The position numbers were made by a program, and so were the translations under genes. The notes below the pieces were generated by a model, which saw only the letters and a program-made list of their open reading frames with translations, did no database searches and was not told the DNA's origin. From Fibrobacter succinogenes subsp. succinogenes S85 (GTDB lineage Bacteria; Fibrobacterota; Fibrobacteria; Fibrobacterales; Fibrobacteraceae), in NCBI RefSeq assembly GCF_000146505.1, contig NC_017448.1:1170001-1202000 (forward strand): a stretch of DNA of 32,000 bases. Reading direction: 5' to 3'. Shown in pieces: positions 1,038 through 30,479 of this stretch. Every line of letters begins with the position of its first letter. Positions within the stretch are counted from its first letter, which is position 1.

Positions 1038-1157
1038 TTTGCCCCTCCTGAACGAACCTTCGCAACTTTTTGCTTGCATTTCTTTTATTTTTTTAATAAA
1101 TCTACAAATATCATACATACTTGATACATTTGAAGTTTTGGAATCAGGAGGTGAATC

Positions 1158-2711
1158 ATGAATGCGATAACTAAAGTGACTAGTATTATTACAGCTATTG
1201 CAGTTTCATCCATTTTTGCAGCCAAGGCACCCGTAGCTAAACCCGCCGCCAAAAAGCAGGAAGCTCTGACCGTCTGGATTATGCCAAACGGCGCATCGCC
1301 ACAAGAAAAACTTGAACAGAGATTAAACCTCTTTACCAAGAAAACAGGAATCAAGACAAAAGTCACCGTTCTGGACTGGGGTGTAGCCTGGAACCGCATC
1401 ACGACGGCACTTGCCACCGGCATAGACGCACCAGACGTATTACAGCTCGGCACAACATGGGTCCCGTACTTTGCTTCCCGCGGCGAAATCAAGCCTTTGA
1501 ACGAATGGCTCACACAAATTGATTCCACGAGGTTCGTTCCCGTCAGCTGGAACACGACTCATATCGACTCCGACACGACCATCTATTCCGTTCCGTGGTT
1601 CATCGATATCCGCCCAATTTTGGCCAACAAACGCATTCTCAAGAAGAACGACATCAATCCTGACGATGTCTCTACATTTGATGGATTCGTTAAAGCCATC
1701 CGCAAGGTGAACAACAGCCACGAAATGCTCGACGACGGCACCAAGGTCCGCGCATTTGCATTCCCGGGAAAGAACGACTGGAATATCCCGCACAACTTCG
1801 CCCCGTGGGTCTGGAGCAACGGCGGTAACTTCATCGAAAAAGACAATAGCGGTAAATGGAAGGCCGCCATCCTTACGCCAAAGACCATTTACGGTATCGC
1901 AAAGTACCTGAGCTTTGTGCTCGATACTCTTGTAAGCACCGAAGCCTTGCAGATGAACACGGCTCAGATCGTGCAACACTTTAACGCAGGCGAACTCGCC
2001 TTCATCGTGAACACGTCCGAAGTCATTATGCAGACCCGTTTCGATGGCGCCAAGGGCGGTCTTAACAACACGAAAATCGGTAAAGACAGCGTGATGGCAC
2101 TCCCCATCCCGACAGGCACGGAAGGTTCTGTCAGCTTTATCGGCGGAAGTAACCTCGCCATCCCGACAGGCAACAAAAAGCAAGAATCTTTGGATCTTTT
2201 ACTTTATCTCACCAACGATGAAAACTTGGATGCATATACAAAGCAAATAGGCATGCTCCCCGCATCGAAGAAGGTTCTTGCCAACTGGTCCAAGGACGAC
2301 GACTACAAGACGCTCGTTCCTATGCTCGGCACAGGGCGTGCCTACACAGCCATTCCAGAATGGGGCGATATTGAACAGATCCTCGGATCCATGTTCAGCA
2401 CCATTTGGGACCATCTCGAAATCCCGGCGCTTTACTCCGAAGAAAAGATTTATGAAATCCTCGCGAATTATTCAAACGACATAAACAAGCACCTGAACCA
2501 CCCGATTTCCGGAGACCTCACATTCGCAGAATTCCGCGAAACCTGGCACAAGGCCCTGGGCATCAAGGACGGAAACCAGAACAAGGGTATCGAAGAAAAA
2601 ACAAAGCCGACCGAAGAAAACGATTCCGGTTTCAGCCGTACCCCGTGGATTTTCGCCATCGCCGTGCTCTTCGGGTTCATTTTTGCGTTCACCCGTAGGA
2701 AAAAGCACTAA
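1158..2711 (+). CDS. Extracellular solute-binding protein (ABC family-1 sugar SBP type) with a C-terminal membrane anchor
   Basis: 517-aa ORF with AGGAGG 6 nt upstream of the ATG and an N-terminal signal peptide. The SBP-like core includes VWIMPNG and LDWGVAWNRITTALATGIDAPDVLQLGTTWVPYF. An extra tail ends in the hydrophobic helix WIFAIAVLFGFIFAF followed by RRKKH. Confidence 0.8.
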   Translation: MNAITKVTSIITAIAVSSIFAAKAPVAKPAAKKQEALTVWIMPNGASPQEKLEQRLNLFTKKTGIKTKVTVLDWGVAWNRITTALATGIDAPDVLQLGTTWVPYFASRGEIKPLNEWLTQIDSTRFVPVSWNTTHIDSDTTIYSVPWFIDIRPILANKRILKKNDINPDDVSTFDGFVKAIRKVNNSHEMLDDGTKVRAFAFPGKNDWNIPHNFAPWVWSNGGNFIEKDNSGKWKAAILTPKTIYGIAKYLSFVLDTLVSTEALQMNTAQIVQHFNAGELAFIVNTSEVIMQTRFDGAKGGLNNTKIGKDSVMALPIPTGTEGSVSFIGGSNLAIPTGNKKQESLDLLLYLTNDENLDAYTKQIGMLPASKKVLANWSKDDDYKTLVPMLGTGRAYTAIPEWGDIEQILGSMFSTIWDHLEIPALYSEEKIYEILANYSNDINKHLNHPISGDLTFAEFRETWHKALGIKDGNQNKGIEEKTKPTEENDSGFSRTPWIFAIAVLFGFIFAFTRRKKH

Positions 2712-2759
2712 CCAGTTGCAAATTCGTTAGTTATATTTCAAAAAAAGACGCAAAGAACT

Positions 2760-4460
2760 ATGGGTTTAAAATTTTCCAATCTCACAAACAGCATCATCAT
2801 CAAGAGTTTACTGCTCTTGATTGTCTCAATGCTTGTCATCGTGATGATTGGAACTTACGTTTTCACCCAGAGGCAAATGAAGACCACGCTTAAACTGAGT
2901 TACGATACCAACGAAACCCAGTTACAGCAACTCGCAAACACGGTCAACAACGAAATGGAGCAGTTTGCAAGTCGTCTGACTTTGTTGGCAAAGACTTCCG
3001 AAATTCAAAGCATGGACAAGCTCATAGCGGCCGGTTACCTCAAAAGCTTCAACATATCGTCGCTATTCATTTCGGGCGAATCCATATCGCTCTTTGACCG
3101 TAGCTACAATCTTGTCTGCAACAACTCCATGCTAGGCTCAACCAAGATAACCTACCCTATCGAGTTCAATAGAATTTCTCCTCACAGGCCGACCATTTCT
3201 CCATGGTTCCGCGACACCGACGGCACTCCCAAGCGAGCCTTTGGCGTTGTCGTTTCGGACAGAGCCATGGGTGATGGAAGACTGGTATCAAACTTTTCGA
3301 TTCGCCGACTCTGGAAATACTTTTCGGAATACAAAGTCGGGCAAAACGGCATTCTCATCGCATGCAATGGCCAAGGCGAAATCCTTTACCACCCGGATAT
3401 GAGAACTTGGCTTGACGGAATCCACAAGATTACGGAACTCGGACTTGGCGACATGAACATCAAGCAGGATAGCGATAATTCCATTCGTTTCGTAAAGCTG
3501 GACAATGGAAAATCCTACCTCATCAACAGGACTTTCAACCCGACTTACGACCTTGGTCTTATCGCCTTACAGCCTAAGACAGAAATTGATGCAATGGTTT
3601 CGTCGGTTCACCATGTCAGCCAAATCATTTTGTTCAGTTCGATTATCGCCATCTTGCTCGTGTCTCTTTGGCAGATTCTAATTGTGTGTAAGCCATTGAA
3701 CAACTTGATTGACCACATCTCGCAAATCACCGAAGGCAAGCTGGACATTGAAGAATTCAAGGCCAGGAGCAGCCAGGACGAAATCGGCAGACTTGCCAAG
3801 GTGTTCAACCAGATGCATGCGACCATCAAGCGGCAGATTCAGGAACTGAACGCGCATAGGGACATGCTTGAAAAAGAAGTCAAGGAACGCACATACGAGC
3901 TTGAACAAGCTAATAAAAAACTGGATTTGATTTCTAGAACGGATGAACTGACACAGTTGCCGAACCGCCGCGACATGCACAGGACTATCGAAAAGGAAGT
4001 CGACCGTGCAAACCGATTCAAAAAGGCGTTCAGCATCATCTTTATTGATATTGACCATTTCAAAGACGTGAACGACACGTACGGACATGCCGCAGGCGAT
4101 GCCGTGCTCAAGTCGGTCGCAAGCACCATTCGCAGTCTGTTGCGCAAGTACGATGTGCTCGCCCGCTATGGTGGCGAAGAATTCCTGACGCTCCTCCCCG
4201 AAACGGAACTGAAGGATGCAGCACACGTCGCCGAACGATTCCGCAAGCAGATTGAAAACCAGACCATCTTCTTTGGCGGCCAGGAAATCAAAGTGACGAT
4301 TACGCTTGGCGTAGCTCAGTTTGATAGCGGCCTTGGTGCAGAACGCTGCATCCAGCTTGCAGACAAGGCCCTTTACGAAGGCAAGGAACACGGCAGAAAC
4401 AGGGTCATCCTCTGGACGGACGATCAGGCCGTGGAAAGCACCGACAAGCCACTCGCATAA
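2760..4460 (+). CDS. Membrane sensor diguanylate cyclase (periplasmic Cache-like domain, HAMP, coiled coil, GGDEF)
   Basis: 566-aa ORF with two TM segments flanking a ~250-aa extracytoplasmic domain. A HAMP-like linker (DEIGRLAKVFNQM) follows. The GGDEF domain has GGEEF at nt 4170-4184 and an RxxD I-site (RKYD, nt 4143-4154) five residues upstream. Confidence 0.85.
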   Translation: MGLKFSNLTNSIIIKSLLLLIVSMLVIVMIGTYVFTQRQMKTTLKLSYDTNETQLQQLANTVNNEMEQFASRLTLLAKTSEIQSMDKLIAAGYLKSFNISSLFISGESISLFDRSYNLVCNNSMLGSTKITYPIEFNRISPHRPTISPWFRDTDGTPKRAFGVVVSDRAMGDGRLVSNFSIRRLWKYFSEYKVGQNGILIACNGQGEILYHPDMRTWLDGIHKITELGLGDMNIKQDSDNSIRFVKLDNGKSYLINRTFNPTYDLGLIALQPKTEIDAMVSSVHHVSQIILFSSIIAILLVSLWQILIVCKPLNNLIDHISQITEGKLDIEEFKARSSQDEIGRLAKVFNQMHATIKRQIQELNAHRDMLEKEVKERTYELEQANKKLDLISRTDELTQLPNRRDMHRTIEKEVDRANRFKKAFSIIFIDIDHFKDVNDTYGHAAGDAVLKSVASTIRSLLRKYDVLARYGGEEFLTLLPETELKDAAHVAERFRKQIENQTIFFGGQEIKVTITLGVAQFDSGLGAERCIQLADKALYEGKEHGRNRVILWTDDQAVESTDKPLA

Positions 4461-4468
4461 ATAAGATC

Positions 4469-4489
4469 CGCAAAATTTCTATTTTTGCG
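4469..4489 (+). terminator. Weak hairpin between the diguanylate cyclase gene and dusA
   Basis: CGCAAAA-(7 nt)-TTTTGCG, an AT-rich stem of 7 bp with no separate U-tract. Confidence 0.2.
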
Positions 4490-4492
4490 TTC

Positions 4493-5530
4493 ATGAACAT
4501 TGACTTCAACCGTAGACTATCCATCGCTCCGATGCTTGACTGCACGGACCGCCACGAACGTTATTTCTTGCGTTTGCTTTCCAAGCACATTCTGCTTTAC
4601 AGCGAGATGGTCGTCTCTACGGGGCTTCTGCATTGCGAAAACAAGGACTTGTTCCTCGGACACGAACCGTTTGAACACCCGGCTGTGTTGCAGCTCGGCG
4701 GTAGCAATCCGGCGGATCTTGCCTCGGCCTCAAAGCTCGTGGAAGCGGCTGGCTTTAGCGAAGTCAACTTGAATTGCGGTTGCCCTTCGGACCGTGTGCA
4801 GAACGGGAACTTTGGCGCGTGCCTCATGAAAGAGAAGAACGTTGTCGCCGATTGCTTCAAGGCGATGCAGGACGCCGTTTCAATTCCTGTTTCTATCAAG
4901 TGCCGCATTGGGGTCGATGACCTGGACAGCTGGGAATTTTTCACAGATTTCATCCAGACCGTGCGTGATGCAGGCTGCAAAATTTTCATCGTGCATGCGC
5001 GCAAAGCTTGGCTCAAGGGACTCTCGCCTAAGGAGAACCGCGAAGTGCCGCCGCTCCATTACGAGTTCGTCCACCGCCTCAAGGCGGAGATGCCGGAGCT
5101 GAACTTGAGCATCAACGGAGGCATCAAGACGCTCGACCAAATTGAAGAACAGCTGAAAGATTTGGACGGCGTGATGGTCGGTCGCGAAGCCTACGAGAAT
5201 CCGTGGTTCCTGCACGATGCCGATGCAAGAATCTTCGGGGATGTCCGCCCAGAAAGCAACGACCCGGCTGAGATTATTGCCGGAAACGCTCGCCCCGCCA
5301 CAAGAAAGGCGCTCCTCGAAGCCTACCTCCCCTACGTCGAGAAGCAGACTGCCGAAGGCTGCCCCGCGACGATTCTCGTGAAGCACCTCTACGGGCTTTT
5401 TGCAGGACTCCCGGGCGCCCGCAAATTCCGCGCCACGCTCAGCAACGAGAGCCCCCGCGCCCACCTTTACGGAGGTGCCGCCGCCCTCATCCGAAAAGCG
5501 ATGGAACTCGTTGGTGAGACTAGAGACTAG
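4493..5530 (+). CDS. dusA: tRNA-dihydrouridine synthase A
   Basis: 345-aa ORF. The N-terminus RLSIAPMLDCTDRHERYFLRLLS, the motif NLNCGCPSDRVQNGNFGACLM and the overall length are typical of DusA. Confidence 0.9.
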   Translation: MNIDFNRRLSIAPMLDCTDRHERYFLRLLSKHILLYSEMVVSTGLLHCENKDLFLGHEPFEHPAVLQLGGSNPADLASASKLVEAAGFSEVNLNCGCPSDRVQNGNFGACLMKEKNVVADCFKAMQDAVSIPVSIKCRIGVDDLDSWEFFTDFIQTVRDAGCKIFIVHARKAWLKGLSPKENREVPPLHYEFVHRLKAEMPELNLSINGGIKTLDQIEEQLKDLDGVMVGREAYENPWFLHDADARIFGDVRPESNDPAEIIAGNARPATRKALLEAYLPYVEKQTAEGCPATILVKHLYGLFAGLPGARKFRATLSNESPRAHLYGGAAALIRKAMELVGETRD

Positions 5531-5550
5531 AGACGAGAGAAGAGAGAAAA
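5516..5550. repeat. Five tandem degenerate heptamers spanning the dusA stop codon
   Basis: The sequence reads GAGACTA GAGACTA GAGACGA GAGAAGA GAGAAAA. TAG occurs at two unit junctions (5521 out of frame; 5528 is the dusA stop). Confidence 0.7.
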
Positions 5551-5567
5551 CAAGCAATCTCTCGTCT
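5531..5567 (+). terminator. Perfect 10-bp hairpin immediately after dusA
   Basis: AGACGAGAGA (5531-5540) pairs with TCTCTCGTCT (5558-5567) across a 17-nt loop. TTCGTCT follows, so the U-tract is poor. Confidence 0.4.
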
Positions 5568-5622
5568 TTCGTCTGTAGCCCCCAAAGCGGGCGTTCTTTC
5601 GTCTAAAATTCTTCCCTACCCC

Positions 5623-5651
5623 TTGACAAGCGAATAAAATTTTTCTCTATT
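5623..5651 (+). promoter_or_regulatory. Candidate sigma70-like promoter for the small basic ORF
   Basis: TTGACA at 5623-5628, a 17-nt spacer, then TCTATT at 5646-5651 (4 of 6 matches to TATAAT). Confidence 0.25.
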
Positions 5652-5693
5652 TGGTGGCGTATTTTTAAGTTTAACCTTTAACGGAGATACAAC

Positions 5694-5789
5694 ATGCCTT
5701 GCGGAAAGAAAAGAAAGCGCAGGAAGATTGCGACTCACAAGCGTAAGAAGCGCCGTCGTCGTGACCGTCACAAAAAGAAACTTCGCTAA
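5694..5789 (+). CDS. Small, highly basic protein (31 aa), absent from the ORF track
   Basis: The ORF runs from ATG at 5694 to TAA at 5787-5789 and encodes MPCGKKRKRRKIATHKRKKRRRRDRHKKKLR (20 of 31 residues are K or R). GGAG lies ~9 nt upstream and a hairpin with T-run follows. It resembles the ~30-aa basic proteins annotated in FCB-group genomes as AURKAIP1/COX24-domain proteins (from memory). Confidence 0.6.
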   Translation: MPCGKKRKRRKIATHKRKKRRRRDRHKKKLR

Positions 5790-5825
5790 TATCCGTTAGC
5801 ATTTTCTTGTGATTTCCTGTAAAAG

Positions 5826-5850
5826 ACGGAGTGTAAAAGCTCCGTTTTTT
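5826..5850 (+). terminator. Intrinsic terminator candidate after the small basic ORF
   Basis: ACGGAG-(8 nt loop)-CTCCGT followed by TTTTTT. Confidence 0.4.
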
Positions 5851-5899
5851 CGTTTTTCATTTAGAAAAGTGACCAATTTTAGCGACAAAAAGACATCTG

Positions 5900-5915
5900 T
5901 TGATTCACAAATCAA
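5900..5915. promoter_or_regulatory. Inverted repeat (operator candidate) upstream of argF
   Basis: TTGATT-CACA-AATCAA, a perfect 6+6 palindrome ~35 nt upstream of the argF ATG. It is ARG-box-like in layout only. Confidence 0.3.
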
Positions 5916-5949
5916 ACGATAAATAGGGACAACCCCCAAAGGAAACCAA

Positions 5950-6909
5950 ATGATAGATCGCAACAAACACTTCCTCCGCCTCATGGACTGGAGTGAAGAA
6001 AAAGTTCTCGAAACCATCGAGATTGCCTCGCGTCTCAAGGCTGAAGTTCACGCTGGTAAGGTCTCTGACCGACTCCACGGCCAGAACATCGCCATGTTCT
6101 TCGAAAAACCGTCGCTGCGAACTATTACGACTTTCCAGGTGGGCATGAACCAGCTCGGCGGCCACGCCGTGCTTCTCTCCCCGGATTCTATTGGTCTCGG
6201 CAAGCGCGAAAGCGTCAAGGATGTCGCCCGCTGCCTCAGCCGCTGGGTCAACGCCATTGTGGTCCGTTGCTTCAAGCAGCAGCTCGTCGAAGAACTCGCT
6301 GAATACGGTTCCATTCCGGTTGTGAACGCTTTGACTGATGACTATCATCCGTGCCAGGCAATCGCTTTTGCCCAGATGATCAACGAAAGCCTCGGCGGAT
6401 TCAAGAACGCCGATGGCAAGCCGAAGACAGTCGCCTTCATCGGTGACGGCAACAACGTAGCGAACTCCTTCCTCGCCCTCGCCGCAAAGGTCGGCATGAA
6501 CTTTACGCTAGCCTGCCCGAAGGGCTTTGAACAGCCCGCCAAGGTTGTCGAAGAAGCGGAGGCCGGCTTGAAGAAGCACGGTTGCCAGTACCGCGTTTTC
6601 CACGATCCGAAGGAAGCTGTCAAAGACGCCGACATCCTCTATAGCGACGTTTGGGTTTCTATGGGTCAGGAAGGCGAAAAGGCAACCAAGCAAAGCCACT
6701 TCTTGCCGTTCCAGATTAACGACGAACTCTTGAAGCTCGCTCCTTCTCACTGCAAGGTCAGCCACTGCTTGCCGGCTCACCGCGGCGAAGAAATCACGGA
6801 CTCCGTGATGGACAATCTCGACGTGAACATGAGCTTCGAAGAAGCCGAAAACCGCCTGCACGCTCACAAGGCTGTTCTCTGGCAGGTGATGACGCCGTTC
6901 AACAAGTAA
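5950..6909 (+). CDS. argF: Ornithine carbamoyltransferase
   Basis: 319-aa ORF with the HPCQ, DVWVSMGQE (SMG loop) and HCLPAHRGEE motifs of canonical OTCases. The carbamoyl-phosphate motif reads SLRTI rather than STRTR. Confidence 0.85.
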   Translation: MIDRNKHFLRLMDWSEEKVLETIEIASRLKAEVHAGKVSDRLHGQNIAMFFEKPSLRTITTFQVGMNQLGGHAVLLSPDSIGLGKRESVKDVARCLSRWVNAIVVRCFKQQLVEELAEYGSIPVVNALTDDYHPCQAIAFAQMINESLGGFKNADGKPKTVAFIGDGNNVANSFLALAAKVGMNFTLACPKGFEQPAKVVEEAEAGLKKHGCQYRVFHDPKEAVKDADILYSDVWVSMGQEGEKATKQSHFLPFQINDELLKLAPSHCKVSHCLPAHRGEEITDSVMDNLDVNMSFEEAENRLHAHKAVLWQVMTPFNK

Positions 6910-11333: not shown

Positions 11334-11371
11334 TCTGAAATTCCTTTTTTGGTTTTTGCGGATACACCGGT

Positions 11372-11393
11372 AAAAGCGGTTTCATTCGAAACC
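11372..11393 (-). terminator. Weak hairpin plus U-tract inside the operon leader (attenuator candidate)
   Basis: The minus strand reads GGTTTC-GAAT-GAAACC followed by GCTTTTA, ~40 nt upstream of the SDR ATG. Confidence 0.2.
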
Positions 11394-11477
11394 TTGACAC
11401 ATGTTATCCTGATTTGTTGTGATTCCTTTGACTTCTTTTCTATAACCGTTGAAGCCCAAAGGATAATTGGCTTCTGG

Positions 11478-11525
11478 TTAGTTTATTTTCAGAATGCCTT
11501 CCGGCATTCGACAGTCGCTACACAT
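11478..11525 (-). CDS. 15-codon Cys-rich mini-ORF in the operon leader (leader peptide or precursor candidate)
   Basis: The minus strand reads AAGGAG-CATAT-ATG TGT AGC GAC TGT CGA ATG CCG GAA GGC ATT CTG AAA ATA AAC TAA, encoding MCSDCRMPEGILKIN. The ORF contains the perfect hairpin GAATGCC-GGAA-GGCATTC (11492-11509). Confidence 0.3.
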   Translation of the reverse strand: MCSDCRMPEGILKIN

Positions 11526-11594
11526 ATATGCTCCTTCGAAAGCCAAGGTGAAGTGAAAGACCTTTTCAATTCCCTATCGTTCTTGTATGTTATA

Positions 11595-11623
11595 AAATTA
11601 GAATATACCTTCTGCAATGTCAA
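11595..11623 (-). promoter_or_regulatory. Candidate promoter of the SDR/CysK-like/LanC-like operon
   Basis: On the minus strand, TTGACA (11623-11618), a 17-nt spacer, then TAATTT (11600-11595). This implies a ~255-nt 5' leader. Confidence 0.4.
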
Positions 11624-11804
11624 GGCATAGAGATATACTATTTTATCATGGGTAGCTATAAGATATAACTATAACAATAAATACCAGATTATTGAAGGGA
11701 ACGCGCGCACAAATGCTATCCTAGACTATGATATTTATTACACATTCCGTCAAAACACCTTTAAAATCTGTTCTTGAAAGGTGTAATTAATTAAATTTCC
11801 ATCG

Positions 11805-13519: not shown

Positions 13520-13561
13520 ACGAAAGACCAAAGCTAACCACTAACCACTGTTTACTAACCA
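13517..13561. repeat. Heptamer array filling the pheA-rph spacer
   Basis: The sequence reads TAGACGA AAGACCA AAG CTAACCA CTAACCA CTGTTTA CTAACCA, then CC-ATG (rph). The reverse complement reads ...TAGTGGT TAGTGGT... Confidence 0.65.
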
Positions 13562-13563
13562 CC

Positions 13564-17662: not shown

Positions 17663-17737
17663 ACAACACTCCTTTCTTTTATCTATAAATTGTAATATAT
17701 ATTATTTCTTTTACTTAGTTACCAGTTATGAATACAA

Positions 17738-23125: not shown

Positions 23126-23191
23126 AAAAAGGCGACCCCGGCGCTTCGGCACGCTCAGCGACCTTAAGCCGGGGTGACATTGTCAAGAAAA

Positions 23192-24460
23192 TTACTTCTT
23201 GAGGCTCGGAACGCCACCGAAGTCGACGTTCGTCTTCTTGCCGAGCAAGAGAGCGCGAGTCTTGAGCGGGAGGCCGTAGCAACGGATGAAGCCCGTAGCG
23301 TCCTTCTGGTCGTACATGTCAACGTCCGTGAATCCACCGAGGCCCATGTCGTACAAGCTGTACGGGCTCTTGATGCCAGCCGGGATGATGTTGCCCTTGT
23401 AAAGCTTGAGGGTAACTTCACCCGTCACAACCTTGTTCACTTCATTGAAGAAGGCGTCCATAGCCTGGCGGAGCGGAGTGAACCACTGGCCATTGTAGAC
23501 AAGGTTTGCGTATGTCATAGACATCTTCTGAGCTTCGAACAAAGTTTCCTTGTCAAGCACGAGCTGCTGCAAGCATTCGTGAGCCTTGTAAAGGAGCGTG
23601 CCACCCGGAGTTTCATAAACACCGCGGCTCTTGAGGCCGACAAGGCGGTTTTCAACGATGTCCAAAAGACCGCAAGCGTTCTTGCCACCGATTTCGTTCA
23701 AGAATTCGAGAAGTTCAACAGCGCCCATCTTCTTGCCGTTGATAGCGACCGGATTGCCCTTTTCAAAGGAGATCGTCACGTGATCGGCCTTGTTCGGAGC
23801 CTTTTCATACGTGTTGGTGTGCTTGAGGAATTCGTACTTGTGTTCCTGTTCCGGGAATTCCAAGACGCCACCTTCGTGAGAAAGGTGCCAGAGGTTGCCG
23901 TCTTCGGAGTAGATCTTCTTCTTGCTGATGCCGTTGAGCGGAATCTTGTGTGCAGCAGCGTAGTCGATAGCGTCTTCGCGGCTGTGGAATGTCCAACGCG
24001 GGTCCTTCCACGGAGCGATGACTTCAAGCTTCGGGTTGAGAGCTGCGTAGGTGAGTTCGAAACGAACCTGGTCGTTACCCTTACCGGTAGCACCGTGAGC
24101 AACAGCGTAAGCGCCTTCCTTTTCGGCGATCTTGACCTGGTACTTAGCGATGAGTGGACGAGCGAAAGACGTACCGAGGAGGTAAGTGCCTTCGTACTTT
24201 GCACCGGCGCGAACGGTCGGCCAAACGTATTCTTCAAGGAATTCCTTCTTGAGGTCGAGAACGTAGCACTTGGAAGCACCGGTCTTGAGAGCCTTTTCTT
24301 CGAGAGCCTTTGCGTTCGGGAAGTCATTCTGGCCGAGGTCGGCTGCGAATGCAATCACTTCGACGTCGTAGGTTTCCTTGAGCCAAGGAATGATGATGGA
24401 GGTGTCAAGTCCACCGCTGTAAGCGAGGACGACTTTCTTCTTGGATTCTGTTTTAGCCAT
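23192..24460 (-). CDS. argG: Argininosuccinate synthase
   Basis: 422-aa ORF with the VVLAYSGGLDTS ATP-binding motif and ArgG-like sequence throughout. Confidence 0.93.
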   Translation of the reverse strand: MAKTESKKKVVLAYSGGLDTSIIIPWLKETYDVEVIAFAADLGQNDFPNAKALEEKALKTGASKCYVLDLKKEFLEEYVWPTVRAGAKYEGTYLLGTSFARPLIAKYQVKIAEKEGAYAVAHGATGKGNDQVRFELTYAALNPKLEVIAPWKDPRWTFHSREDAIDYAAAHKIPLNGISKKKIYSEDGNLWHLSHEGGVLEFPEQEHKYEFLKHTNTYEKAPNKADHVTISFEKGNPVAINGKKMGAVELLEFLNEIGGKNACGLLDIVENRLVGLKSRGVYETPGGTLLYKAHECLQQLVLDKETLFEAQKMSMTYANLVYNGQWFTPLRQAMDAFFNEVNKVVTGEVTLKLYKGNIIPAGIKSPYSLYDMGLGGFTDVDMYDQKDATGFIRCYGLPLKTRALLLGKKTNVDFGGVPSLKK

Positions 24461-24512
24461 TTTGAATGTCCTTATGGAAAATTTTTTAGACGGAATAAAT
24501 GTAGTAAAAAAA

Positions 24513-24612
24513 GTTATTAGTTGTTAGTTACTAGTTAATAGTCATTAGTTACTAGTTATTTGTAGGTAGCTAATAGTCTATATAGTTGGTAGAACTCAGA
24601 ACTTAAAACCTA
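24513..24612. repeat. Array of ~14 degenerate tandem heptamers in the argG / mlaD-like divergent spacer
   Basis: The sequence reads GTTATTA GTTGTTA GTTACTA GTTAATA GTCATTA GTTACTA GTTATTT GTAGGTA GCTAATA GTCTATA (TA) GTTGGTA GAACTCA GAACTTA AAACCTA. The 14-mer TTAGTTACTAGTTA occurs twice, 21 nt apart. Confidence 0.8.
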
Positions 24613-24644
24613 AAGCGCAATACATTTTTTCTATTTTCAAAAAC

Positions 24645-25661
24645 ATGAAACTTTCGGACAGAGCGCTTGGCTACATTTCTCTCATTGTTTTTGCAGGTAT
24701 CTTTGCAGGCATTTCTTTTGGCATGTGGGCGGCCCACCAAAACGTACACCAGACAGCAATCGTCGATTTCAAGGAACTGGGTTCATTGCAGCCCGAAGAT
24801 CCCGTGGTGTTGCATGGCTACCGAGTCGGCACTATTGGAAGCGTCACCTGGCTTAAGGACCGCTCCCGTGTGAAGATTCATTTCACCGAACCGCTCAAGC
24901 TCCGCGAAGGTACGCAATTCAACAATGTAAACTACGCGCTCATGGGGCAACGCCGTCTCGAAATCATCCCGTCAAAGACGGGAACTCTCATGCCAGAAAA
25001 CCACGTGTTCCAAGGGCATTTTGAACCGGGCATTGCAGAAACACTCCGACTCGTTGAAAACGTAAACGAGCAGCTTGAAGCTGTGCGAAAGACAATTCTG
25101 CTGCTTGCGCAGGGAGACTCTTCGCACAAGTCCGCTCCGGAAATCTACGAAGAAGCGATGCATTCCATTGAAGATATTTTCGCGCATACCGAAAAAACAG
25201 TCAGCAAACTCGGCCCCAAGATGAACAAGCTTTTCAAGCAAATGAATTCTTCGACCAAAGCCATTTCCAAGACCGCCCTTCAAGCCGACTCGGCAATCAA
25301 GACTGTCACAGCTTCTGCCAACGAAAAACTTTCTCTTGTGGACTCCGTCGTCATCACGCTTACAGAAAATGCAAAAAAGACAAACGAAGTTCTCACGAGC
25401 ATTGAAAAGGGCATTGATTCCCAAACGCTTTTGCAATCCAAGGAACTTGTCGAAAACATCAACGAAATTATTGCAAGCCTCAACAAGGCCGTGCAAACCA
25501 TCGACACGAAGAATTTTGGATTCAAGGATAAAGACGGCAATCCGATCAAGCTGATTACCTGGAAGAACATGAACATCGTTGGCGACAACGCCCGCGACAA
25601 AGCTCGCAAGCGATTGGAAGAAGCCAAGGCTCAACAAGAACAAAAGAAAGCAGGCAAGTAA
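24645..25661 (+). CDS. MlaD/MCE-domain protein with a long coiled-coil tail
   Basis: 338-aa ORF with an N-terminal TM segment and an MCE domain (VVLHGYRVGTIGSVTWLKDRSRVKIHF). A helical, low-complexity C-terminal half follows. Confidence 0.75.
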   Translation: MKLSDRALGYISLIVFAGIFAGISFGMWAAHQNVHQTAIVDFKELGSLQPEDPVVLHGYRVGTIGSVTWLKDRSRVKIHFTEPLKLREGTQFNNVNYALMGQRRLEIIPSKTGTLMPENHVFQGHFEPGIAETLRLVENVNEQLEAVRKTILLLAQGDSSHKSAPEIYEEAMHSIEDIFAHTEKTVSKLGPKMNKLFKQMNSSTKAISKTALQADSAIKTVTASANEKLSLVDSVVITLTENAKKTNEVLTSIEKGIDSQTLLQSKELVENINEIIASLNKAVQTIDTKNFGFKDKDGNPIKLITWKNMNIVGDNARDKARKRLEEAKAQQEQKKAGK

Positions 25662-27755
25662 ATGGATTTATCAAGCCTGCCCGGACTTGGTCCCAAGAGA
25701 CTTGAAAAGCTGAACAAGTCCGGCTTAAGTACCATAGCCGATCTTTTATACAACATTCCGCGCACTTACCTCGACCAGACCAAGGTTTCAAAGATTGCGG
25801 AACTGCACGATGGCGACCGCGCGGTCGTGATTGGAATTATCACAAGAGCAGGGATTGTCAAAGGGCGCATGTCGCGCTTTATGGCAGTCCTCACGGATGG
25901 CACCGCCGAAATTTCGCTTTTATTTTTCCGCGGCACACGATTCATCGCAAACCGCGTGAAGCCGGGAACACGTTGGCTTGTTTCGGGTACGGTCGGTTCA
26001 TACCGCGGGCTGCAATTGGTGCATCCGGACATGCAGCCGTTCGACGAAGGCGAAGCATTTAACGGACAAATTCTCCCCGTCTACCCGATTAGCGAAGTTT
26101 GCCGTGAAGCCAAAATGGAACAGCGGTTTTTCCGCAATTTGTACAAGACGATTTTCAATTTTCCAGGACTCACGCTCCCGAACGCTTGCCCACGCGAACT
26201 CACGGACTATTTGCACTTTGCACCTGTGATGGACAATCTCCGTACGCTCCACATGCCGAAAGATTTTGATTCCATTTACAAGGCGAAGCGCGAGCTCAAG
26301 ATTTTGGAGCTTTTGCCGTTTTGCCTGCGTATGGTGAAGCGCCGCGAAAATCAAAAGATTCGCGGGCATGAACGCCAGATTGATTTGGGGAACGTGATGG
26401 CAGCGAAAGCGCGCCTCCCGTTCCAACTGACCGCAGGTCAGGACGCGGCGCTGAACACAATCATTGACGGTCTCAATGGCAAAAAGCAGTTCCACGCACT
26501 GTTGCAAGGCGACGTGGGCTGCGGAAAGACCGTAGTCGCCATGCTCGCCATTATGGCCGTCTGCGGAGCAGGCGAACAGTGCGCGTTGATGGTCCCGACA
26601 GACATTCTCGCCCGCCAGCATTTCAAGTCGCTCAAGCCGTTCTTTGATGCGGCAGGCATCCGCGTGCATCTGCTTGTTGGAGCAACTCCCGCCGCCGAAA
26701 AGAAAGTGATTCTCGGGGAACTCCAGATGGGGCTCTGCAACGTTGTCATCGGAACGCATGCACTCTTTAGCAAGGACGTTTTCTTTGCAAAGCTCGGGCT
26801 CGTGATTATCGACGAACAGCACCGTTTCGGCGTGAGCCAGCGCGAAGCGCTGCTCGCCAAAGGCGACTACCCCGACATGCTCGTCATGAGCGCTACGCCG
26901 ATTCCGCGAAGCCTCGCGATGACGCTATATGGCGATTTGAAAGTCATCAGCATCAAGGAAAAGCCGGCAGGACGCAAGCCCATCAAGACGCGCCTCGTGA
27001 ACGCCGCGAAGCGCGAATCGATGAAGCAGTTTATTTGCAAGGAAGCCGCCGGCGGAAATCTCTGCTACTGGATTGCAAGCCGCGTAAACGCCGATGGTTC
27101 AGACAATGCCGACGAGAGTAGCGCCCGCAGTGTCGATGACATCGTGAACGAAATGCGTTCCTTTATCGCCGCCTTCGGCCACACTGATGCAAACATCGCA
27201 AAGCTCAAAGTCGCAGGCGTCCACGGCCAAATGGACGACACGCAAAGAGACGAAATTATCAAGCGCTTTGCCGCCGGCGAAATCCAGATTCTAGTTGCTA
27301 CAACCGTTATCGAAGTCGGCGTGAACGTCCCTGCCGCAAATCTCATGGTCATCGACCAGCCAGACCGATTCGGTCTGGCGCAGCTCCACCAGCTGCGCGG
27401 CCGCGTAGGCCGTGGCAATCAAGAAGCCTGGTGCTTCTTGATGACGCCTGAAGGCGAAGCCGCCGAAACAAGCATGGAACGCCTCTCGCAATTTGCCGCC
27501 ACCGAAGACGGCTTTGAAATTGCAGAACTTGACCTGAAAACACGCGGCGCCGGAAACCTCGAAGGCAACGAGCAAAGCGGAGCCTGGGTATTCCGCTGGT
27601 TTGACTGGATTCACGACCAGGAACTCATTTCACAAACGCTTGAACGCGCAGAGCATATATTAAAAGACGGTTCCGCATTTAACGAAACCGCCAAAGAAAA
27701 AATCCAGACTTGGTATAACGAGAAGCCCTCGGCAAACGAGGACGGCGTCCATTAA
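25662..27755 (+). CDS. recG: ATP-dependent DNA helicase RecG
   Basis: 697-aa ORF with Walker A GDVGCGKT, DEQHRFG, TTVIEVGVNVP and QLRGRVGRG. Its ATG directly follows the upstream TAA. Confidence 0.93.
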   Translation: MDLSSLPGLGPKRLEKLNKSGLSTIADLLYNIPRTYLDQTKVSKIAELHDGDRAVVIGIITRAGIVKGRMSRFMAVLTDGTAEISLLFFRGTRFIANRVKPGTRWLVSGTVGSYRGLQLVHPDMQPFDEGEAFNGQILPVYPISEVCREAKMEQRFFRNLYKTIFNFPGLTLPNACPRELTDYLHFAPVMDNLRTLHMPKDFDSIYKAKRELKILELLPFCLRMVKRRENQKIRGHERQIDLGNVMAAKARLPFQLTAGQDAALNTIIDGLNGKKQFHALLQGDVGCGKTVVAMLAIMAVCGAGEQCALMVPTDILARQHFKSLKPFFDAAGIRVHLLVGATPAAEKKVILGELQMGLCNVVIGTHALFSKDVFFAKLGLVIIDEQHRFGVSQREALLAKGDYPDMLVMSATPIPRSLAMTLYGDLKVISIKEKPAGRKPIKTRLVNAAKRESMKQFICKEAAGGNLCYWIASRVNADGSDNADESSARSVDDIVNEMRSFIAAFGHTDANIAKLKVAGVHGQMDDTQRDEIIKRFAAGEIQILVATTVIEVGVNVPAANLMVIDQPDRFGLAQLHQLRGRVGRGNQEAWCFLMTPEGEAAETSMERLSQFAATEDGFEIAELDLKTRGAGNLEGNEQSGAWVFRWFDWIHDQELISQTLERAEHILKDGSAFNETAKEKIQTWYNEKPSANEDGVH

Positions 27756-29965: not shown

Positions 29966-30034
29966 GGCAAGAATATACAATTTTAGACGAGAGGAAAAAA
30001 GATGAAAGACGAGAGATATCGTCTATTTCTATAC

Positions 30035-30063
30035 TTGCACATTCACGATGCTTTTTCTACATT
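30035..30063 (+). promoter_or_regulatory. Candidate promoter of rnpB
   Basis: TTGCAC (30035-30040), a 17-nt spacer, then TACATT (30058-30063). This places the predicted start ~7 nt downstream, at the inferred 5' end of P1. Confidence 0.4.
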
Positions 30064-30070
30064 TCGCCAC

Positions 30071-30436
30071 GAGTGGCGGATGGCCGCCGGCAGCGAGCAA
30101 TCAAAGCTGGAGGAAAGTCCGGGCACCGCAGGGCAAGATGCTGGATAACGTCCAGGCGCGGTAACGCGACAGAAAGTGCAGCAGAGAATAGACCGCCCGC
30201 AGCAATGCGGGTAAGGGTGAAACGGCGAGGTAAGAGCTCACCGCGCTCCTGGTGACAGGAGTGGCATGGTAAACCTCATCCGGTGCAAGACCAAGCAGGA
30301 TTCCGTTCGAAAGAACCTGGTGCGGCCCGTGCCAGCTGGATATCCGGGTAGGTCGCTTGAGGCGGTCGGTAACGATTCGTCCAGAGAGATGGTCATCGCT
30401 TCGCAAGAAGTACAGAACCCGGCTTATAACTACTCT
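30071..30436 (+). ncRNA. rnpB: RNase P RNA, bacterial type A
   Basis: The universal blocks are present: GGAGGAAAGTCCGGGC, AGGGTGAAACGGCGAGGTAAGAGCTCACC, GGTAAACCTCATCCGGTGCAAG, GGGTAGGTCGCTTGAGG and ACAGAACCCGGCTTA. P1 pairs GAGTGG (30071) with CTACTC (30430-30435). The ends are approximate, within about 5 nt. Confidence 0.92.
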
Positions 30437-30441
30437 ACTAT

Positions 30442-30479
30442 GAAGGCTTCCGCGACAAACGGAAGCCTTCACCATTTTT
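30442..30479 (+). terminator. Rho-independent terminator of rnpB
   Basis: GAAGGCTTCCG-(7 nt)-CGGAAGCCTTC, a perfect 11-bp stem, then ACCATTTTT. It overlaps the stop codon of the convergent lipoprotein gene. Confidence 0.8.

Follow-up and report, generated by a model that had tools for sequence, protein, structure and literature searches.

The 100 nucleotides that separate argG from an MlaD-domain gene in Fibrobacter succinogenes S85 are a real, degenerate tandem repeat with a 7-nt unit, one of many such repeats in Fibrobacter intergenic DNA. We consider it likely, if by no means certain, that the tract arose by slippage as a heptamer satellite that renews itself, and that DNA upstream of promoters tolerates it, its role being at most that of an architectural spacer. 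Coordinates refer to the window, the whole stretch of 32,000 nucleotides that was analysed (record CP001792.1); the features under discussion are collected in Table 1.

The tract and the promoters on either side

A preliminary description, made from the letters alone, divided positions 24513-24612 into 14 heptamers with a single 2-nt slip, and the tract reads exactly so: GTTATTA GTTGTTA GTTACTA GTTAATA GTCATTA GTTACTA GTTATTT GTAGGTA GCTAATA GTCTATA / TA / GTTGGTA GAACTCA GAACTTA AAACCTA. The lag-7 autocorrelation is 0.62 compared to 0.30 ± 0.05 in 5000 dinucleotide-preserving shuffles (z = 6.5). The tract exceeds all 5000 at lag 7, and over lags 2-30 no shuffle attains its lag-7 value. Autocorrelation is also elevated at lags 14 and 21. 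Tandem Repeats Finder reports 24512-24560 as 7.0 copies of period 7 with 78% matches and 24512-24592 as 3.8 copies of period 21, a superstructure. The periodicity is weaker distally, with lag-7 values of 0.76 over 24513-24561 and 0.52 over 24562-24612 (0.52-0.62 in the distal segment 24583-24612), and the final three units belong to a second type, GAACTnA.

The finer features of that description are likewise borne out. From 24518 to 24553 a TAG stands at each 7-nt step, six in succession, and the pattern TAG-N4-TAG-N4-TAG has four matches, all in the tract and none elsewhere in the window, against an expectation of 0.04. The 14-mer TTAGTTACTAGTTA, the longest exact repeat in the tract, starts at 24524 and at 24545, 21 nt apart, and the copy with one mismatch is present at 17715-17728. 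Both strands are rich in stop codons, with three to six in each of the six frames of about 33 codons. The tract was also rightly distinguished from a CRISPR array, a coding repeat and a terminator. Its units are 7 nt long and contiguous, whereas a CRISPR has repeats of about 23-47 nt with unique spacers of similar length, and it sits between argG and the mlaD-like gene. A scan of 24300-24800 gave neither terminator-like nor sigma-70 promoter sites, neither array strand folds more stably than its shuffles (z +1.46 as DNA, +0.57 as RNA), and a scan of Rfam at gathering thresholds gave no match at the tract, only RNase P RNA.

Table 1. Repeats, genes and predicted promoter elements of the S85 window
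Feature	Position	Strand	Basis or remark
Heptamer array, GAGACTA/GAGACGA/GAGAAGA	5512-5553	+	3′ end of gene 4493-5530
Short array, CTAACCA CTAACCA CTGTTTA CTAACCA	13534-13563	+	Abuts RNase PH gene ATG (13564)
Two-unit remnant TTAGTTACCAGTTA	17715-17728	+	Unit type as in the argG array; one mismatch to the 14-mer
argG (argininosuccinate synthase)	23192-24460	-	PF00764, PF20979
Predicted argG -7 box CTACATTT, TAnnTTTG-like (Bacteroidetes-type)	24497-24504	-	Motif; kept upstream of argG across Fibrobacter
A7/T7 run linking argG box to first unit	24506-24512		Within 24-nt anchor kept in all alleles
Array core, seven (T)AGTTAnT units	24513-24561	+	Lag-7 0.76; only TAG-N4 x3 site in the window
Three degenerate units, GTAGGTA GCTAATA GTCTATA	24562-24582	+	Resemble AGTAGGn/AGTGGTT units of the array in other Fibrobacter species
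TA slip, then GTTGGTA GAACTCA GAACTTA AAACCTA	24583-24612	+	Weakly periodic end; mostly missing in L011 and L012 (32-nt indel)
Predicted -7 box CTATTTTC of mlaD-like/recG operon	24631-24638	+	TTTTCTATTTTC genus-wide directly before ATG
MlaD-domain gene (24645-25661) and abutting recG (25662-27755)	24645-27755	+	Domain matches
Degenerate GAGACGA-type array	29983-30017	+	Between divergent 605-610-aa gene and RNase P RNA promoter

Promoter studies in Bacteroides and Flavobacterium have established TAnnTTTG as the -7 box of Bacteroidetes. The motif CTAnnTT(T/C) resembles this box and is strongly positioned, 94 of its 123 occurrences falling in four of sixteen 10-nt bins, on the sense strand and 10-50 nt before start codons. 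Fibrobacter appears to use a Bacteroidetes-type box of this kind instead of a sigma-70-type promoter. Such boxes lie on both sides of the array and, with their immediate flanks, are conserved across Fibrobacter. The distance from box to transcription start was calibrated on RNase P RNA (Rfam RF00010, 271 bits; 30070-30440, forward strand), where a CTACATTT box at 30057-30064 lies 6 nt upstream of the RNA 5′ end. With this spacing the argG start is predicted near 24491, which would put the array at approximately -22 to -121, and the mlaD-like start near 24644, which would put it at approximately -32 to -131. Relative to the conserved boxes, the array takes up all of the spacer that separates the divergent core promoters. 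As it lies upstream of both starts predicted from box spacing, it is probably not transcribed.

The argG ATG is 52 nt from the end of the array. The gene carries its own AAGGA ribosome-binding motif, and inspection of the array by eye found no TTG-type -33 element for the argG promoter. On the opposite side the box in TTTTCTATTTTC ends 6 nt before the mlaD-like ATG and is conserved genus-wide (24626-24647; L011-L052). With the predicted start only one base before the ATG, this conserved box suggests that the mlaD-like/recG operon is probably transcribed as a leaderless mRNA.

Two open reading frames overlap the genes considered here. A stop-free antisense shadow of argG, 448 codons on the forward strand (23174-24520), spans the entire gene and is closed by the array's first TAG (24518-24520); a longest-ORF gene caller prefers this 448-aa reading to the true argG. 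The 124-aa reading frame at 30101-30475 on the reverse strand overlaps RNase P RNA and is almost certainly spurious.

Period-7 arrays in Fibrobacter spacers

Are such tracts a property of this locus or of the genus? The preliminary description had proposed comparing the frequency of period-7 tracts with that in shuffled sequence, and the enrichment is large. In 325 intergenic spacers (81.7 kb), taken from the orthologous neighbourhood in about 45 Fibrobacter genomes and metagenome contigs, there are 34 lag-7 arrays compared to 0.11 ± 0.31 in shuffles of the same spacers. Lags 4-6 and 8-13 yield none or one, and lag 14 is a harmonic. The census covers orthologous neighbourhoods rather than the whole S85 genome and, the loci being orthologous, arrays and alleles are not independent samples.

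With genes called by a codon-usage-scored caller, none of the 36 arrays in a non-redundant set falls inside a called gene. Counted by spacer type, six arrays are divergent, 21 co-directional and two convergent, with approximately 8, 16 and 5 expected from spacer length, and there is no strong preference for a spacer type. Distances from array to start codon are unreliable because stop-rich arrays determine where reading frames begin. The same property matters for annotation, as heptamer arrays cut off open reading frames or seed spurious ones.

The units themselves are varied and include TAGTTAC, GAGACGA/TAGAGAC, TAGTGGT, CAGTAGG, TAGAACT, TAGGTAT, ATGGTCA and ATGTGAA/CACATTC among others. With so many sequences sharing one period, period 7 is a trait of the genus and not of one motif. 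The arrays are asymmetric, strongly richer in G than in C on one strand (|skew| > 0.5 in 22 of 36), and TAG, where present, is on the G-rich strand. In 29 of 36 arrays (the window and L003-L052) that strand runs counter to the local GC skew, but all these loci are orthologous and oriented alike, so the figure by itself does not indicate a replication-strand effect. TAG occurs in the consensus unit of 19 of the 36 arrays, compared to 10.0 ± 2.7 when the letters of the units are shuffled.

This approximately two-fold enrichment bears on the earlier proposal of a frame-independent translation barrier, in which TAG in three frames would halt stray ribosomes on antisense or read-through transcripts. 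The density of stops in every frame of both strands is what such a barrier would need, and the first TAG of the array does terminate the argG shadow frame. The proposal does not survive the wider comparison, however, and we find it scarcely credible. The consensus unit is free of stops on both strands in 10 of the 36 arrays, and these units show the same preference for period 7. The argG array, moreover, is placed upstream of both predicted starts. A single stop per frame would suffice in any case, which leaves 14 units unaccounted for.

Some arrays occur as inverted pairs. That at 5512-5553 has an inverted copy at 5558-5578, and the two form a hairpin with 21-nt arms, 86% complementary, just after the stop codon; a similar pair, again a long hairpin after a stop codon, is found in L037 (10611-10688). 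It is possible that inverted heptamer pairs are terminators made of repeats, a role that has been reported in Xanthomonas. The array at 29983-30017 is degenerate in S85, but its counterparts in L011 and L012 lie in orthologous spacers with clean periodicity. In viral contigs, four consecutive TAGTTNN units gave at least 120 matches and the period-6 and period-8 controls also gave at least 120, so these counts have no bearing on a preference for period 7.

One contig in the collection is anomalous. L051, 7.2 kb in length and labelled Paludibacteraceae, has five different heptamer arrays in 7 kb (1126-6540), long non-coding stretches and an MlaD-like fragment 52% identical to the Fibrobacter protein. 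It is either a mis-binned Fibrobacter contig or a case of heptamer arrays in a Bacteroidetes genome.

Three further elements of the window were recorded. At 5694-5789 on the forward strand, downstream of TTGACA-N19-TATTTG, is a 31-aa, extremely basic reading frame, MPCGKKRKRRKIATHKRKKRRRRDRHKKKLR, which looks like a small basic ribosomal-type protein and has no Pfam or NCBIfam match. At 15-65 two direct copies of a G-rich 15-mer (GCTATGGGGTATGAG / GCTATGGGGTATTAG) flank a GGCACTTCGTGCC hairpin. The argG upstream region of L013 is organized similarly, and the unit may represent a small dispersed repeat. The third is a 471-nt spacer between divergent genes (11334-11804) that is unusually long for the window and contains neither a called gene nor an Rfam match.

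Turnover of the argG array

In the close relatives L011 and L012 the promoters that flank the array are almost the same as in S85, with a few substitutions in L012. Between the promoters, the arrays of the three differ by indels of +21 nt and +7 nt, and of -32 nt at the mlaD-proximal end. Comparison of unit number between strains had been suggested from the S85 letters, and length polymorphism in steps of 7 and 21 nt between close relatives is what it reveals. A wider collection, obtained with the conserved 24-nt argG promoter anchor as probe, comprises at least 10 distinct alleles. In every one a heptamer array directly follows the anchor in the same phase, and the phase with the argG promoter is kept though the gene upstream differs. 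Unit number ranges from 4 to at least 14. Units of the form AGTTAnT occur in S85, L011, L012 and L053, and AGTGGTT, AGTGATT, AGTAGGA or AGTAGAC in L004, L019-L022 and L054-L059. In the more distant species L035, L037 and L042-L046 the argG promoter lacks an array. Most species also lack one upstream of the mlaD-like gene, where another gene adjoins. Since several species lack it at these promoters, the array is dispensable for both genes.

Positions within the unit have not changed alike. Over 72 units from 10 alleles the A-G-T positions carry 1.0-1.6 bits each, the preceding T 0.75 and positions 4-6 only 0.1-0.5, a contrast that may point to constraint on the (T)AGT core in these sequences. 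Four-fold degenerate sites of argG differ from S85 by 9% (L011) to 17% (L022). With units replaced over so modest a divergence, the variable positions of the array must change more quickly than silent sites do, as expected from expansion and contraction of variant units.

These observations form the basis of the explanation that we favour. Arrays gain and lose DNA in 7-nt steps and variant units spread along them, as the alleles display, with replication slippage as the presumed driver of turnover. The array would be tolerated because, judged by the predicted starts, it lies outside both core promoters. No sequence-specific function would be needed; at most the array may serve as a G/T-skewed, unstructured and flexible spacer that sets the distance between promoters. 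Several observations sit less easily with a satellite: the constraint on the (T)AGT core, the enrichment of TAG, the attachment to the argG promoter and the strand asymmetry. Nor does slippage alone account for units of exclusively 7 nt.

Slippage had also been invoked in the preliminary description, as the basis of a contingency tract. Half of that idea stands. The tract is slippage-prone on an evolutionary timescale, with its 21-, 7- and 32-nt indels, but we judge it very unlikely to be a classical contingency or phase-variable locus, in which gain or loss of units would alter promoter geometry and switch expression of argG or mlaD/recG. The 7- and 21-nt differences between relatives, and a position between two promoters, would suit such a switch. 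However, units that match at only 78% would suppress slippage, the array is outside the box-to-start segment of both promoters and the flanking genes are housekeeping genes. The array is also identical in six independent S85-type assemblies, although these probably represent one strain. Contingency repeats are near-perfect and lie within a coding frame or separate the core elements of a promoter; the argG tract is neither near-perfect nor so located.

The conserved core directs attention to a different possibility, a selected cis-element in which (T)AGT or XAG sites every 7 nt are read by an oligomeric or cooperatively binding protein that tunes one or both promoters. Candidate readers are a HutP- or TRAP-like protein that recognizes repeated AG triplets, or a cold-shock-domain protein, each monomer of which engages about 7 nt of single strand. 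The target would be the melted T-rich, C-poor strand between the divergent promoters, or read-through RNA. The AGT core is conserved while positions 4-6 are free to vary, TAG is enriched in consensus units, and the array remains with the argG promoter through rearrangements. The TAG strand, being C-poor and folding worse than its shuffles, would be accessible in single-stranded form, and CspB of Bacillus subtilis binds as one protein per heptamer repeat (PMC4679880). The sites of HutP, the Bacillus antiterminator, consist of XAG and four spacer nucleotides, in two sets of three motifs that flank a leader terminator (PMC2425495). The tract, with three or more XAG at 7-nt spacing, resembles such sites solely in its pattern, and the HutP model RNA (UUUAGUU)3 is almost the unit, agreeing with nTTAGTT at six of seven positions (PMC2425495). 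The CspB and HutP parallels serve as leads towards a protein that would account for the 7-nt period. Unlike HutP sites, however, the approximately 10 motifs of the tract are in DNA predicted to be untranscribed, and not in a transcribed leader with a terminator, so RNA-level binding is unlikely here. On duplex DNA a 7-bp spacing would set successive sites 240° apart. Many Fibrobacter arrays, such as ATGTGAA/CACATTC, have no AG or TAG core, arrays occur in both orientations and all spacer types, and the same promoters lack the array in other species. On balance we regard a protein-binding array as unlikely, while according it some weight.

Relationship to other heptamer repeats

The preliminary description stated that heptamer arrays of this type had not been described. 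That is incorrect, as several families are on record, among them the repeats surveyed by Mrázek in 2007, those of Calothrix and Nostoc, and the TAACTGA and GGGAATC repeats. A search of the literature on Fibrobacter in combination with heptamer, heptanucleotide or tandem repeats did find no relevant report. Heptamer arrays are a known, functionally unexplained class, to which Fibrobacter adds a member. The Fibrobacter arrays are tandem, dispersed and non-coding and change length by whole units, as do heptanucleotide long simple sequence repeats and STRR-like satellites.

Heptanucleotides are the most abundant class of long simple sequence repeats in most prokaryotic genomes, and the proposed rationale for a 7-nt unit is that DNA polymerase holds about 7 nt, which would favour slippage (Mrázek, Guo & Shah 2007, as cited in PMC4679880 and PMC4692102). 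As the survey is represented in those two papers, its repeats and the Fibrobacter arrays share intergenic head-to-tail 7-nt units, an excess at period 7, many loci and length change by unit steps. The argG tract differs in being degenerate rather than perfect, and Fibrobacter is not among the taxa that the two papers name in this connection.

The STRR repeats of Calothrix PCC 7601 are three heptamers, and similar repeats occur in Nostoc/Anabaena (cited in PMC4692102, from which we take this summary). In common with Fibrobacter there are several heptamer families per genome, intergenic and of unknown function. The STRR units are reportedly CCCCAGT, TTGGTCA and CAACAGT, as Mazel and co-workers are said to have described in 1990. 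An AGT or GGTCA core is common to some of these and to units of Fibrobacter, as in TTGGTCA compared to ATGGTCA (L011 5225-5323). In contrast to Fibrobacter, STRR arrays are often long and near-perfect and belong to a different phylum with different units. STRR in the strict cyanobacterial sense are therefore not present here, as the host is Fibrobacter and the units differ from STRR1-3.

TAACTGA direct repeats are found in Beggiatoaceae, Cyanobacteria and five Bacteroidetes including Paludibacter; they show indels in 7-nt steps between strains and are intermixed with other heptamers (MacGregor 2015, PMC4679880). The Fibrobacter arrays are likewise heptamer direct repeats of spacers with 7-nt-step indels, and Bacteroidetes is a phylum related to that of Fibrobacter. 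In a Beggiatoa-type genome most TAACTGA sets lie a few nucleotides before a start codon, and in Beggiatoaceae the repeats have been proposed as binding sites for a translational regulator (PMC4679880). Could the argG array be a leader element of this sort, with TAACTAG and TAACTAA on the argG strand as a 5′ UTR site? AGTTATT is one base from AGTTATC, which corresponds to the reverse strand of TAACTGA (PMC4679880), and the array at 13534-13563 abuts a start codon. The exact TAACTGA unit is nevertheless absent from the argG array, whose argG strand reads TAACTAG, TAACTAA or CAACTAA. The array is in forward orientation for argG but, unlike the Beggiatoa-type sets, is well separated from the ATG, with the conserved -7 box in between, and argG has a ribosome-binding motif of its own. 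We consider a leader element highly improbable.

The GGGAATC heptamers of Xanthomonas and GGGGA(C/T)T of Nostoc form about 180 intergenic arrays per genome, with "extensive length and sequence variation" in orthologous Xanthomonas spacers, whose flanking genes are shared between related species (Rehm et al. 2015, PMC4692102). Inverted pairs form hairpins, and no regulatory role was found (PMC4692102). These units have G-runs and can form G-quadruplexes, whereas the argG array has no G-runs; GGGAATC-type repeats are under-represented between divergent genes, which is where the argG array sits (PMC4692102).

A more general idea is that the Fibrobacter arrays, and by extension the AGT-core STRR and the TAACTGA repeats, are platforms for a single-strand-binding protein, with cold-shock-domain, HutP-like and TRAP-like proteins as candidates, that reads one AG(T) every 7 nt. 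We put this forward as a speculation that is quite improbable as matters stand. If true, binding to the melted C-poor strand at divergent promoters of the argG/mlaD type would couple or insulate the two, and reading of the platform would account at once for the 7-nt period, for the conservation of the core and for the asymmetry between strands.

To our knowledge bacterial heptamer repeats, recognized since 1990 and widespread, have no established function and no established reason for a 7-nt unit. Fibrobacter extends them to another phylum and to a rumen bacterium that can be cultured, in whose spacers period 7 is almost the sole tandem period. At argG a core of 3-4 nt keeps its phase in at least 10 alleles, the remaining positions of the unit changing faster than synonymous sites, and this allele series is a usable natural experiment in which the mechanics of slippage can be set against selection.
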